Shown here: positions 9,932-63,201 of the stretch, piece after piece
Position numbering within the stretch: position 1 is the first letter of the stretch
Layout of the letters: each line of letters begins with the position of its first letter
Source of the DNA: Eledone cirrhosa
Lineage: Eukaryota
Assembly (NCBI GenBank): GCA_964016885.1
Contig: OZ024756.1
Span: 248,001-312,000 of the forward strand
Direction of reading: 5' to 3'
Length of the DNA stretch: 64,000 nt
Translations under genes and position numbers: made by a program
Notes under the pieces: model-generated
Told to the model about the DNA's origin: nothing
The model's input: only the letters and a program-made list of their open reading frames with translations
Databases searched by the model: none

Positions 9932-10378
9932 AAAAGTTTTATTTAAAATTGTTGGGTTACAACGAGTAAATATTTTATAACTGATATAAAGCACTCAACA
10001 AGTTTTGGAGTAGATATACGATATTAAACAAATGGAAACTATATTTATAAAACCATATTTATTTCATTATACATATTTCAGGGATACCATATTAAAAATA
10101 TGGCATGCCTTCTTCAGATAAAATACAATATATAAGCAGTTTTATAAATAAATTTGACGTACCATAAATATTGTTCAACTTCCATTTAAAAAAGTTGGTT
10201 TTTTAAATGGAAGTTGAACAATATTTATGGTACGTCAAATTTATTTATAAAACTGCTTATATATTGTATTTTATCTGAAGAAGGCATGCCATATTTTTAA
10301 TATGGTATCCCTGAAATATGTATAATGAAATAAATATGGTTTTATAAATATAGTTTCCATTTGTTTAATATCGTATAT
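9932..10378. mobile_element. Foldback pseudo-LTR fragment of a Naiad-type PLE relative, with hammerhead in both arms
   Basis: Arms 10014-10193 and 10199-10378 are reverse complements. The left part is similar to pLTR 17835-18080. Confidence 0.85.
10267..10332 (+). ncRNA. Type I hammerhead ribozyme motif
   Basis: TATTTTAT-CTGAAGA-[AGGCATGCCATATT/AATATGGTATCCCT]-GAAA-TATGTA-TA-ATGAAATA. Confidence 0.75.
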
Positions 10379-10382
10379 ATAT

Positions 10383-10531
10383 ATTATTTCTGAAGACGGC
10401 GTATATATGAGTTGGGTATGTATATTTAATCTTGATAATTTGTATAATTTTGTATAATTTTGTACATAGATCTGTTAAATATGCATACCAATTATAACAC
10501 ATATATACCCTAGAAACGATCGTTAAATAGT
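10383..10531 (+). ncRNA. Type I hammerhead motif with long stem II
   Basis: ATTATTT-CTGAAGA-..GTATATATG..CATATATAC..-GAAAC-GATC-GTT-AAATAGT. Stem III is palindromic. Confidence 0.7.
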
Positions 10532-10613
10532 GAACTTTTTTTGTTTAATATAAGGAATTGTTTGTTCATTATTTGTTTAATATTTTATATATATATATAT
10601 ATATATATATATA

Positions 10614-10663
10614 ATCATCATTTTACGTCCGCTTTTCCCTGCTTGCAAGGGTGGGACGGGTCT
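10614..10663 (-). mobile_element. Extreme 3' tail of a third RTE family or its SINE
   Basis: Reverse complement of CCCACCCTTGCAAGCAGGGAAAAGCGGACGTAAAATGATGAT. Confidence 0.7.
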
Positions 10664-10710
10664 TATATATATATATATATATATATATATATATATATAT
10701 ATATATATCG

Positions 10711-10825
10711 TTATAGTTTCTGAAGATATGATGGAGCCAACATGTATTTTAAATTGAGTGGCACTACTTTCAGTGTTTAGCAATTTTTAGACAACTCTAT
10801 CAGTGAAACAATTGTTAGACTGTAA
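10711..10825 (+). ncRNA. Type I hammerhead motif in a short PLE-like tail insert (10709-10878)
   Basis: TTATAGTTT-CTGAAGA-..TGATGGAG..CTCTATCA..-GAAAC-AATT-GTT-AGACTGTAA. Confidence 0.75.
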
Positions 10826-58331: not shown

Positions 58332-59201
58332 TATATATATATATATATGTATATATATATATGTATATATATATATGTATATATATATATATATGTATAT
58401 ATATATATGTATATATATATATATATATGTATATATATATATGTATATATATATGTATATATATATGTATATATATATATATAAGTATATATATATATAT
58501 ATGTATATATATATATATATGTATATATATATATGTATATATATATATATGTATATATATATATATAAGTATATATATATATATATGTATATATATATAT
58601 ATATGTATGTATATATATGTATATATATATATATATGTATATATATATATGTATATATATATATATATGTATATATATATATGTATATATATATATATAT
58701 GTATATATATATATGTATATATATATATGTATATATGTATATATATATATATATATGTATATATATATATATATATATATATGTATATATATGTATATAT
58801 GTATATATATATATATATATGTATATATATATATATATATATATATGTATATATATATATGTATATATGTATATATATATATATGTATATATGTATATAT
58901 ATATATACGTATATATGTATATATATATATATGTATATATATATATATATATGTATATATATATATATATATATATATATATATATGTATATATATATAC
59001 ATATATATATATATATATATATATATGTATATATATATATATATATATATATATGTATATATATATATATATATATGTATATATATATATATATATATAT
59101 GTATATATATATATATATATATATATGTATATATATATATATATATATATATATGTATATATGTATATATATGTATATATATATATATGTATATATATAT
59201 A

Positions 59202-59435
59202 TTTATTTCAGATTGCTCCAGTTTACTCAGCTGTAGAAATGAGATGATAGGGACCCCAGTCCCTATCATTCCACTGCAAAGTGGTCGTGGAGGTGCCACG
59301 GCAAAACAGCACCCAGCACTCACTGTAAATGAGGTTGGTGTTAGGAAGGGCATCCAGCTGTAGAAATCAAGCCAGAATCAGTTCCCGTCCCACCCTTGCA
59401 AGCAGGGAAATGCGGACGTAAAATGAAATGATGAT
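59202..59435 (+). mobile_element. 5'-truncated copy of the RTE-tailed SINE
   Basis: Matches the reverse complement of 17124-17355. Confidence 0.85.
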
Positions 59436-59487
59436 ATATATATGTATATATATATATATGTATATATATATATATATGTATATATAT

Positions 59488-62402
59488 ACCAGAAGACGTG
59501 ACAGAGTGTCTGTTGTTAACACTAAATCCCACCCCCATGAAGAATTCACCTCCCAACATAGACTGATAATTAGCGACCTCATAGTCAGGACGAGACGTAC
59601 TAGACAGCGAAAGAGGACTATCCTCAGGAGAAAAATATGGAAGCTAAAGGACCCCATAGCCAGAAATAAATTTCAAAGCAAATTACTTGACGCTTTCGAC
59701 AGTAAGGAAGAGCAATTAGAGTCGTATAATATAGAGGAACAGTGGGAATTCCTGAGAGCAAACCTGCTGACGGCGGCAGACGAAGTCTGTGGCTGGAGCA
59801 GGCCTGTAGGTAGGAGGAGAGTAACATGGTGGTGGAACAGTAAGGTGGAGGAGTCAATTAAGGCCAAAAAGCAGGCTTGGAAAGTATGGCGGGATGGGGG
59901 AAGTAGAGAAGACTATCAAGTGGCCAGGAGGGAAGCTAGGAGACAAGTGTACTTCGCAAGAAGGGAAGCAGAGGAAAGAAAGTTCAAGCATGTTCTACAA
60001 CGTGAGGACCAAAAACGTGAGGTGTTCAGGATTGCCAGGCAATGTGTCAAGGAAAACCGTGATATTGTCGGGGAGAAGTGTGTACTTAACGATGATGGCA
60101 TACTTGCCATCACCGACGCTGATAAGAAGGTAGCTTGGAAGTGTCACTACGAAAGGCTTCTAAATGAGGAGAACAAATGGGAGAAAGATAGTCTCCCCCA
60201 GATCGATCCAATAGAGGGACCAGCAGTGTTAGTTGAAGGTAGTATAATAAGTAAGGCAATCAAAGATATGAAGACGGGTAAGGCGGCTGGGCCTTCGGAA
60301 ATAGTTGCTGAGATGCTGAAGGCATCTGGTTCGGTGGGACACACCATGGTCACCCGGATAGTTAACCAAGTCGTACAGAATGGGGTTGTTCCGAAGGAAT
60401 GGCGTAGCAGCATCATCGTTAACTGCTATAAGGGAAAAGGAGATGCCCTAGATAGGAGTAACTATAGAGGCATTAAATTAATCGACCAGGTCATGAAGGT
60501 CACGGAAAAAGTAATAGCGCAACTAATCAGAGAGAGAATTGATCTAGATGAAATGCAGTTCGGGTTTGTGTCAGGCAAAAGTACCACAGACGCTCTTTTC
60601 ATTGTACGACAACTACAGGAGAAGTACCTAGCTAAAAGTAAACCCCTATACTTAGCTTTTGTCGACTTGGAGAAAGCCTTCGACAGAGTCCCCCGTTCCA
60701 TTATCTGGTGGTCTCTTAGAAAACTAGGTGTTGACGAATGGCTTGTGAGAGCTATACAAGCCATGTATAAAGAAACAGTCAGTAAGGTTAGAATTAACAA
60801 CGAATATAGTGAAGAGTTTAGCGTAAAAGTTGGTGTCCATCAGGGCTCTGTACTTAGCCCCCTACTATTTATTATTGCCCTTCAGGCTATAACAGAGGAG
60901 TTCAAGACCGGCTGCCCATGGGAACTCCTATACGCAGATGATCTAACGCTCATAGCTGAATCAATGACCGAACTAGAGAAGAAATTCCAAACGTGGAAGC
61001 ACGGCCTAGAATCAAAAGGCCTTAAAATTAACCTGGCTAAGACTAAAGTTCTAGTTTGTAGGAAAGAAAATAAGGCGGCGGTCCCATCGGGGAAATGGCC
61101 ATGCTCAGTGTGTAGGAAAGGCGTAGGTAGAAACTCCATTTTATGTCCCAAATGCAAAGTATGGGTGCATAAAAGATGTAGTGGGATCACAGGTAAGCTA
61201 ACTAAGAACATAGATTTTACATGTGGCCGGTGCTCTGGTGCAATAAGTAGCAGCAAGTGCCCACAAAATACTAGCTCCTTCAACTGCGCAGAGGGTTCTA
61301 TAGAAATAGTGGATAGCTTCCGTTATCTGGGTGACAAAATCAGCAGTGGGGGAGGGTGCTCTGAAAGTACAGTAGCTAGAGTCAGAACTGGATGGAAAAA
61401 GTTCAGAGAGCTTATACCACTATTAGCCGCTAGAGGGTTCTCCCTAAAAATGAAAGGCAGGTTATACGATGCCTGCATACGAACAGCAATGCTGCATGGC
61501 AGTGAGACCTGGGCATTGTGTGCAGAGGATATACGCAGACTAGAGAGGAACGAAGCTTGCATGCTCCGCTGGATGTGCAATAGTAATATACGTGAACGGC
61601 AAAGCATAAACGAACTAAGGAAAAAATTAGAAATAAGAGGGATCAGATGTTGTTTACTCGAGAGAAGGCTACGTTGGTACGGTCACGTGATGCGCATGAA
61701 AGACGACAGCTGTATAACAAAGTGCAGGGCAATAAAGATAGACGGTAGCCACGGAGTAGGCAGACCCAGAAAAACATGGGACGAGCTGATAATTTCCGAC
61801 CTCACACGCTTACACCTCTCCAAGACAATGTCACTGGACCGAGACCTTTGGCGGTACTCAGTAATAGAGAAGACCCGCCTTACCTAAATACAAAGTAAAA
61901 ACCTACTACAGTCAGTAGGCACCTCTATCAAAACACACCCCCGTCCCACCACCTCCACCTCCACCCCACCCACACCGCCCCTTTCAATGTAAAGTTATGT
62001 TGGCCCCACAACATCCAGGCCGAAACAAATGAGATCGTGTAGGTGTCACGACAAAAAACACACAGTCCACGCTGTAAATGTGGCCGTGTAGGCAACACGG
62101 TAAAAACCTCCCAGCCCCACACTGTAAATGTGGTTGGTGTTAGGAAGGGCATCCAGCTGTAGAAAACCCGCCAGACAGTCCACGCTGTAATGTGGCCGTG
62201 TAGGCAACACGGTAAAAACCTCCCAGCCCCACACTGTAAATGTGGTTGGTGTTAGGAAGGGCATCCAACTGTAGAAAACCCGCCAGACAGTCCTATGCGA
62301 GCAAGACAACCACTCTTGCCTCAAGTGGGAAAACCCCCGTCCAAACCCATGCAAGCGTGGAACACGGACGCTAAACCTGATGATGATGATGATGATGATG
62401 AT
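59488..62402 (+). mobile_element. 5'-truncated RTE family A copy; open frame to 61887; duplicated 3' UTR segment
   Basis: 819-aa ORF (its first residues are microsatellite). Nearly identical to 11706-13697. Confidence 0.95.
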
Positions 62403-62605
62403 ATATATATGTATATATATATATATATATGTATATATATATATATGTATATATATATATATGTATATATATATATATATATGTATATATATATATATAT
62501 GTATATATATATATATATGTATATATATATATATGTATATATATATATATATGTATATATATATATATGTATATATGTATATATATATATATATATATAT
62601 ATATG

Positions 62606-63201
62606 TAAATATCTTTAAGTCGTTTGGAAGCCTCGACAATGCAAATGGGTAAATCTCCGGGTAACAAGGTCCGGTGGTGGAGAGAGAGATGTAAGTGGGT
62701 GTACGTTGAGATGCGTGGTGTGTATAAGATGTGTGAGATGTGTAGAATGAAGGGAAGAATATAAAGGATAAAATAAAAATAACAACACAAGAGAGAGTTA
62801 CCTTGGGAGAGATTTAATAGTCCCTATATATCTCGGATTCACATCCATCAACTGGGGTTTATTCCAGGGGTGGGGGAAAAGGTTGTCTGTTGGACAAGTC
62901 CAGAACGCGTCCTTCGCTGTTTGTTGTTTTGAATATATAGGGACTATTAAATCTCTCCCAAGGTAACTCTCTCTTGTGTTGTTATTTTAATTTTATCCTA
63001 TATATTCTTCCCTTCATTCTACACATCTCACACATCTTATACACACCACGCATCTCAACGTACACCCACTTACATCTCTCTCTCTCCACCACCGGACCTT
63101 GTTACCCGGAGATTTACCCATTTGCATTGTCGAGGCTTCCAAACGACTTAAAGATATTTACTTATTGTTCCACAATGCTTCAAGCAAACTTCAATACTCT
63201 C
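62606..63201. repeat. Foldback with ~225-bp arms, ~100-bp spacer and a one-sided tail
   Basis: 62606-62830 is the reverse complement of 62934-63161. Confidence 0.9.

Follow-up and report, generated by a model that had tools for sequence, protein, structure and literature searches.

Penelope-like elements (PLEs) of the Hydra clade have been described as targeting (TA)n and bearing hammerhead ribozymes (Craig et al. 2021, PMC8557442). Published accounts of PLE architecture include minimal hammerheads in the pseudo-long terminal repeats (pLTRs) and an inverted pLTR that lacks the tail (PMC3846280, PMC8557442, PMC4209133), and dual hammerheads on opposite strands, 100-700 bp apart, have been ascribed to truncated PLEs (Cervera and de la Pena 2014, PMC4209133). 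How the tail and the inverted terminal copy originate is an open question, addressed in vitro for one other clade only. In that work, on the Poseidon element PAc, both strands of an AT-rich target were cut and extended, the hammerhead was dispensable for insertion, and there were two internal start sites on the RNA, whose distance equals the tail (Frangieh et al. 2024, PMC11167929). Here we analyze a 64,000-nt stretch of Eledone cirrhosa DNA (GCA_964016885.1, contig OZ024756.1, positions 248,001 to 312,000, forward strand; "the window," numbered from its first letter), which holds six short head-to-head foldbacks, E1-E6, and a full-length PLE, PLE-A.

A first-pass annotation of the window had noted, in agreement with the architecture just cited, that pLTRs carry minimal hammerheads and an inverted tail-less copy, and had offered two origins for the foldbacks: stereotyped products, without an open reading frame (ORF), of several PLE families, or retrozyme-like elements mobilized independently. 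We favor the former. A coding element related to E1 lies in the window and has an inverted tail-less arm of the same kind, reads from independent runs show (TA)n next to the tail-less start site, and the structure is a published one. Our preferred reading, to which we assign a probability of roughly 0.6, is that the foldbacks are short dead-end insertions of several PLE families, made anew at each insertion by twin priming at cuts in (TA)n.

Six Foldbacks with One Architecture

All six head-to-head foldbacks that had been annotated are present at the positions given for them, with arms of 51-228 nt that are 89-100% identical to each other. Each has a tail on one arm only, and these tails measure 41-88 nt, close to the 40-90 nt first proposed. 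In the following list, the three numbers in parentheses are identities, mismatches, and gap columns between the arms.

E1, 9932..10378, minus strand: tail 9932-10013 (82 nt); arms 10014-10193 and 10199-10378 (180/0/0), spacer 5 nt; hammerhead cores at 10117 (minus) and 10275 (plus); a short insertion of the PLE-A family
E2, 26690..27030, minus strand: tail 26690-26754 (65 nt); arms 26755-26894 and 26899-27029 (124/7/9), spacer 4 nt; U3-A8 hammerhead cores at 26858 (minus) and 26933 (plus)
E3, 28490..28898, minus strand: tail 28490-28553 (64 nt); arms 28554-28720 and 28736-28898 (161/2/4), spacer 15 nt; hammerhead cores at 28641 (minus) and 28815 (plus)
E4, 45553..45972, plus strand: perfect 332-nt palindrome 45553-45884 (166/0/0), spacer 0 nt; tail 45885-45972 (88 nt); hammerhead cores at 45651 (minus) and 45786 (plus)
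E5, 58144..58331, minus strand: tail 58144-58222 (79 nt); arms 58223-58273 and 58281-58331 (51/0/0), spacer 7 nt; 3' half of a hammerhead only
E6, 62606..63201, plus strand: arms 62606-62831 and 62933-63160 (224/2/2), spacer 101 nt; tail 41 nt; neither hammerhead nor hairpin

The proposed setting in TA tracts holds as well: every insert is flanked by (TA)n or TA-rich sequence, with a short TG run after (TA)10 next to the tail of E3 and a mixed TA/CT run next to that of E1. The foldback centers of E1-E4 lie 36-87 nt upstream of the hammerhead core, and that of E5 is likely in the stem II loop. A systematic search of the window for inverted pairs less than 900 nt apart returned 10 clusters, namely E1-E6, one within the full-length element, one tail-less pair resembling a miniature inverted-repeat transposable element (MITE), and two pairs resembling short interspersed elements (SINEs).

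The foldbacks had been called mostly unrelated in sequence. This is true among the six (local-alignment z ≤5.6), no two of which share a center within the window, but not of E1 and the window at large, as E1 matches a pLTR of the full-length PLE. We also searched for inverted repeats in 77 loci outside the window, which were kept from 337 relatives when a 30-protein alignment was used to search metagenome contigs (about half the collection); in these short contigs, chosen by ORF, no clear second case of an ORF-less foldback was found.

E1 and the Full-length Element PLE-A

A coding relative of E1 lies within the window.

PLE-A, 17837..22897, minus strand: inverted tail-less arm 22475-22897; 5' pLTR 21664-22483; ORF; tailed 3' pLTR 17837-18596; (TA)n on either side
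PLE-A ORF, 19403..21613, minus strand: 736 aa, uninterrupted; motifs RWR (35-39), DKT (118), CxCx5C (595), CxxC (693), and CxH (720)

The ORF has the motifs listed for the Hydra clade in PMC8557442, where CxxC and CxH surround the conserved E and N, and PLE-A and E1 share the other marks of that clade, a pLTR hammerhead and insertion in (TA)n. Judged by these motifs and by 30-42% identity to relatives, PLE-A is a Hydra-clade PLE; the best named relative of its ORF is from Argonauta hians (39%), and no Pfam family was found for it.

E1 is 84.7% identical to both PLE-A pLTRs over 275 nt, and the end points coincide. Its tail-bearing arm tracks the PLE-A pLTR from the tail end through the spacer, leaving a 3-nt microhomology at the center, and PLE-A itself has an inverted tail-less arm like that of E1, with a 9-nt imperfect overlap at the junction. 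By alignment, then, E1 is the PLE-A structure minus its middle, and its arms are homologous to the pLTR of a coding element with the same ends, as expected of a PLE truncation product. A parent ORF could thus be traced through the arms for one of the six foldbacks.

For E2-E6, neither the window nor the 77 outside loci contain a coding parent. The hammerhead type in E2-E5, together with the hairpin described below in E3-E5, points to the clade: E3-E5 likely belong to the Hydra clade, and E2 possibly does. E6, with neither hammerhead nor hairpin at its 3' end, does not show the marks of that clade. A peptide in the E6 spacer resembling a GIY-YIG C terminus and a likeness by eye to a Naiad consensus are unproven leads, and searches with short motifs in the supplement of PMC8557442 gave no telling match.

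Hammerheads in the Foldbacks

With a strict descriptor, minimal type I hammerheads occur in both arms of E1, E3, and E4, in line with the claim of canonical folds in three inserts. The descriptor gave 10 matches in the window, versus a mean of 0.13 (maximum 1) in 30 dinucleotide shuffles; six are in the arms of these three foldbacks, three in the full-length PLE, and one in a solo insert. The further claim of three partial or variant folds is true of two inserts only, because E6 has no recognizable hammerhead. E2, by a relaxed descriptor used without a shuffle control, has U3-A8 cores in both arms, each with a stem I of 3 bp; the score of this descriptor is weak taken alone because an equal-scoring match falls inside the PLE ORF. 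E5, read from its sequence, retains GAAA, stem III, the cleavage triplet, and the 3' strand of stem I and lacks CUGANGA. In E6, neither descriptor found a hammerhead, and a search of 62600-63205 against Rfam gave a single irrelevant match (E 9.4). No Rfam family reached its gathering score anywhere in the window, and at E up to 5 all of the matches listed (150 of 301) were microRNA-type or similar hairpin noise below that score. Two outside Hydra-clade loci (L046:2103 and L054:1938) have U3-A8 hammerhead cores resembling those of E2.

Each strand of a foldback carries one hammerhead, and head-to-tail tandem units are absent. In the predicted folds of E1-E4, all seven core bases are paired, with an opening penalty of 57-95 kcal/mol.

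A Duplicated Bulged Hairpin

The tails of E1, E3, E4, E5, and PLE-A open with a small hairpin (copy 1), in which RCTC pairs with GAGY below a 2-nt bulge and a short upper stem. In PLE-A, a second copy lies 90 nt beyond the first.

Copy 1 in E1, 9991..10011, minus strand: 2 nt past the end of the tail-less arm; model E 0.12
Copy 1 in E3, 28527..28549, minus strand: 4 nt past the tail-less end point; model E 1.6e-4
Copy 1 in E4, 45891..45917, plus strand: about 4 nt past the tail-less end point; strict pattern match; weak by model, E 4.1
Copy 1 in E5, 58191..58216, minus strand: about 5 nt past the tail-less end point; model E 6.7e-3
Copy 1 in the PLE-A 5' pLTR, 21722..21743, minus strand: the same motif is at 17895-17916 in the 3' tail
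Copy 2 in PLE-A, 21634..21653, minus strand: 7 nt past the end of the tailed copies and 20 nt before the ATG; model E 8.6e-4

The strict pattern, which was partly shaped on the window's own copies, matched the window eight times versus 0.145 expected, and seven of the matches are the named copies. A covariance model built from 57 outside hairpins only gave 10 window matches at E up to 5, including E3, E5, E1, and PLE-A copy 2; the others comprise two in the insert at 28982-29446 (E 0.04 and 0.05), two to PLE-A copy 1 (0.19), one in an RTE element (2.6), and the weak match in E4. At E2, the hairpin near position ~26749 is degenerate at best, with no match to pattern or model. A search of the window and of 18 of the 77 loci gave no Rfam match to the hairpin at gathering score.

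The duplication recurs among the outside loci. Of 47 hammerhead copies there with at least 200 nt downstream, 29 are followed by two motifs, 8 by one, and 10 by none; in 27 distinct pairs, the hairpins are spaced 54-79 nt, and the next ATG is 3-43 nt away. Two hairpins, of the form GCTC...T[TCA]GAGCAC, precede the ORF in 21 of 31 Hydra-clade loci, one in five, and none in five. These 31, many of which trained the model, come from 49 loci matching to the protein start, after exclusion of 14 with less than 160 nt upstream and four that are permuted. Across 61 distinct hairpins, and with relatedness ignored in the statistics, the first upper pair is Watson-Crick in 58 (36 C-G, 22 U-A) versus a shuffle mean of 31.7 and maximum of 46, and the second in 44 versus a mean of 17.0. 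The closing G-C is replaced by A-U in the window copies of E1, E4, E5, and PLE-A copy 1.

The ends of insertions track these hairpins. Read from the sequences, the tail-less arm ends upstream of copy 1 by 2 nt in E1, 4 in E3, 4 in E4, 5 in E5, and 6 in PLE-A, and the tails of PLE-A and E1 end 7 nt before the position of copy 2. The outside loci give three further cases: the end of L017 is 3 nt upstream of copy 1, that of L009, judged against a relative, is about 3 nt upstream of copy 1, and that of L019 precedes copy 2 by 2 nt. Overall, tail-less ends lie 2-6 nt ahead of copy 1 and tailed ends 2-7 nt ahead of copy 2, and the tail therefore spans the hairpin spacing. In 29 of 57 hairpins, the stem is preceded by a TA dinucleotide that ends 5 nt away from it.

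Several other sites bear the hairpin or its surroundings. At L025:430-505, a TA run is inserted just before copy 2 within a tandem junction, and at L015:711-904, an inverted tail fragment lies upstream of a hammerhead. Beside E3, a 600-nt insert between TA tracts (28911-29511, plus strand) has a decayed hairpin at its start and copies at 28982-29026 and 29407-29446, the last followed by about 65 nt and then (TA)n; no hammerhead was found in it, and comparison with the Hydra profile gave no match for its short ORF, at 29034 (probability 0.5%). It is possibly a non-autonomous unit bearing both hairpin signals. An orphan match to the strict pattern at 25506-25610 (plus strand), 104 nt before a TA tract, is perhaps a decayed tailed end.

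Reads from Independent Runs

We compared positions 19380-22255 with reads of four of 16 listed runs, three of them contig sets and one a raw set of restriction site-associated DNA reads. In all four, depth in the hammerhead bin was 18-33x that at the 3' end of the ORF and 86-242x that at its 5' end, depth here not being equivalent to copy number. Among the loose-end rows listed, ends in (TA)n occur before 21743 in 5353 raw reads of run X14 and also in contigs of X5, and before 21665 in X4; both end points of E1 and PLE-A are family-wide. Among the rows listed, there are at least five joints between opposite strands, at five different places, one of them inside the hammerhead. No joint at the center of E1 is among those rows, the interval 21949-22255 having been skipped and the sequence having diverged from 21897 on.

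Origin of the Foldbacks

In the mechanism that we propose, a (TA)n target would be cut, and both of its DNA ends would serve as primers for reverse transcription of the element RNA. In the Hydra clade, the hairpins would set the two start sites, one per DNA end, each hairpin binding one protomer of the reverse transcriptase (RT)-endonuclease and the priming site falling a few bases upstream at TA microhomology. Both cDNAs would halt soon after the hammerhead, and a short microhomology or natural palindrome would be the place where they are joined head to head; the product would consist of tail, inverted arm, and arm. The small spacers need an extra assumption here, that both copies are made on one RNA and stop together or at its 5' end. 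A foldback is not expected to template a tailed daughter because it keeps copy 1 only. The more specific idea that the duplicated RNA hairpin acts throughout the clade as a dock for a dimeric, telomerase-related RT, whose two halves would sit on one transcript and prime from opposite ends of a double-strand break, is more tentative, and we place it somewhat short of even odds. If true, it would account at once for the tail, for the inverted pLTR, and for the abundance of ORF-less foldbacks, and it would amount to a portable, two-part cis-signal for PLE insertion.

Several observations weigh against twin priming as we describe it. A coding parent was found for one foldback of six. Spacers of 0-15 nt in five of the six are not predicted by independent priming alone and fit self-copying equally well, and the sole site that distinguishes the PLE-A pLTRs, a microsatellite, groups the inverted arm with the 5' pLTR, as self-copying would. 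Only three of 16 outside rows with TA runs could be mapped; two are internal runs, and 11 are without a close reference, one of these at an intermediate 74 nt. The read excess may stem in part from other subfamilies that have only the terminal segment, as the diverging loose ends at 21812 and 21897 indicate. As to the hairpin, only one of five modeled pairs covaries because the four lower pairs are invariant in the outside loci, the covariance model has no match in E2 or E6 and is weak in E4, and a nucleotide profile of the whole 3' module (39 outside copies) found only E3 and PLE-A copy 2 at E <0.05. Alternatively, the endonuclease could recognize the motif as DNA, or the motif could act in translation.

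Self-copying is the core of the nearest competing account, a snap-back that has the same parents and equally dead-end products: one tail-primed cDNA would fold at a short palindrome, copy itself, and join the other target end at the internal TA site. A similar idea, self-priming, was put forward by Arkhipova et al. 2013 (PMC3846280). We think this unlikely, if far from negligible. Beyond the small spacers and the single microsatellite state of the PLE-A inverted arm and the adjacent 5' pLTR, it is favored by the location of the E5 center within a natural stem, by the 100% identity of the arms of E1, E4, and E5, and by published palindromes at inverted junctions (PMC3846280); the three pLTR copies of PLE-A are too similar to separate it from twin priming. 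However, the tail-less end point appears to act as a priming site of its own, because non-inverted 3' ends such as that of L017 use it too. Moreover, E4 is entirely without a loop, spacers of 101 and 289 nt exist, and the Poseidon protein extends both strands in vitro (PMC11167929).

It is improbable, in our estimate, that the foldbacks are non-autonomous units transcribed and re-inserted whole, in the manner of retrozymes or MITEs, as the second origin in the first-pass annotation would have it. Such mobilization would suit the stereotyped arm length (131-228 nt in five of six), the large excess of the terminal segment in reads, and the lack of a parent for five of six within 64 kb, and retrozymes derived from pLTRs have been reported (bioRxiv 10.64898/2026.07.22.740005). 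But the foldbacks lack tandem units, and the one hammerhead on each strand is predicted to be buried in E1-E4, at the opening cost given above, where minimal forms have been reported to need dimers (PMC4209133). Nor is a center shared among the foldbacks of the window, and the joints in reads fall at several places. Arms are 100% identical, the ends are those of the autonomous element, and hairpin copy 2 is missing. That the palindromes are artefacts of assembly or amplification is very improbable: three of them are perfect and no read is shown across these particular centers, yet the arms of E2, E3, and E6 differ by substitutions and indels, the asymmetry is biologically stereotyped at the hairpin, and in independent runs, these ends again adjoin (TA)n and strand-switch joints are present.

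Under twin priming, the hairpin a few bases downstream of each insertion end offers a handle: deleting it should abolish the tail, moving it should shift the tail, and duplicating it should lengthen the tail. As a short motif, it could also serve to find and orient Hydra-clade ends in TA-rich invertebrate genomes. The long perfect hairpins of the foldbacks, if transcribed, could feed small-RNA silencing.

Neighboring Repeats

The window is rich in other repeats, among which we use RTE, SINE, and MITE as presumptive labels, based in part on Pfam domains. A solo insert between TA tracts (17487-17814, plus strand) carries a type I hammerhead that is complete, with its core at 17662 and a long stem II, but neither inverted arm nor hairpin. 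A second, decayed PLE family is represented by two frameshifted ORFs that are 69% alike and one solo end (22922-24987, minus; 37755-40819, plus; and 26400-26685, plus); its members share a 30-nt end, the family has minimal hammerheads of its own, and E2 adjoins the solo copy at 26400-26685. A 170-nt insert between TA tracts contains, at 10977-11035 (minus), a weak match (E 0.3) to the Hydra hammerhead half. The foldback at 25656-26266 is MITE-like, with 88% identity, a 177-nt spacer, no tail, and no hammerhead. Two SINE-like copies lie tail to tail around (TA)12 at 6321-6562, forming another palindrome, and the family recurs at 6591-6801, 11533-11704, and 14400-15668. CpG-poor minisatellite arrays (a ~39-nt unit and a CA-rich array) occupy 29684-35176. 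A non-LTR element with endonuclease and RT, and with a PHD finger inside its ORF, is present in six copies, mostly in TA tracts, with one open frame of 1085 aa.

Non-LTR element copies: 1788-5045, 8478-9849, 11706-13698, 47577-49487, 53861-56913, and 59422-62401

Comparison with Known Systems

The animal non-LTR retrozymes (bioRxiv 10.64898/2026.07.22.740005) resemble the foldbacks in being non-coding, derived from pLTRs, and equipped with type I hammerheads. They are, however, head-to-tail tandems in which one strand carries two or more hammerheads, in contrast to the single head-to-head units here, which have neither feature. The minimal type I hammerheads of PLEs (PMC4209133) share the short palindromic stem III and the U3-A8 variant with ours, and nothing essential differs from that description except that E6 is without the motif. 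As in the Penelope insertions of PMC3846280, we find direct pLTRs with an adjacent inverted tail-less pLTR, junction overlap, and AT-rich targets. Unlike those, most inserts here consist of two arms only, and target site duplications are unreadable in (TA)n; where that paper proposes self-priming, we propose two priming sites defined by signals.

The endonuclease-containing Hydra-clade PLEs of PMC8557442 are closest. They have an ORF of the C-terminal GIY-YIG type with RWK-like, DKT, CxCx5C, and CxxC/CxH motifs, and they share (TA)n insertion, a pLTR hammerhead, an inverted 5'-truncated copy, and a one-sided tail. Our tails of 64-89 nt contrast with the 30-40 bp stated there for PLEs generally, and the passages of that paper on Hydra-clade PLEs do not discuss ORF-less foldbacks. 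Neither its main text nor the text of its supplement uses the words "hairpin," "stem-loop," or "palindrome," and the literature that we searched, Rfam included, holds no prior description of the hairpin, although supplementary figures, Repbase, or subscription papers may mention it. By eye, the published Hydra-1_Ajap consensus starts 2 nt before a first hairpin, with a second before the ATG and one at the 3' end. The start sites of PAc, at an AC-rich stem loop, lie 111-118 nt inside the ORF (PMC11167929), whereas those proposed here, from sequence alone, would lie in the 5' untranslated region upstream of a duplicated hairpin. The foldbacks are probably ordinary debris of a known class, and the hairpin cis-signal is apparently the part that has gone unreported.

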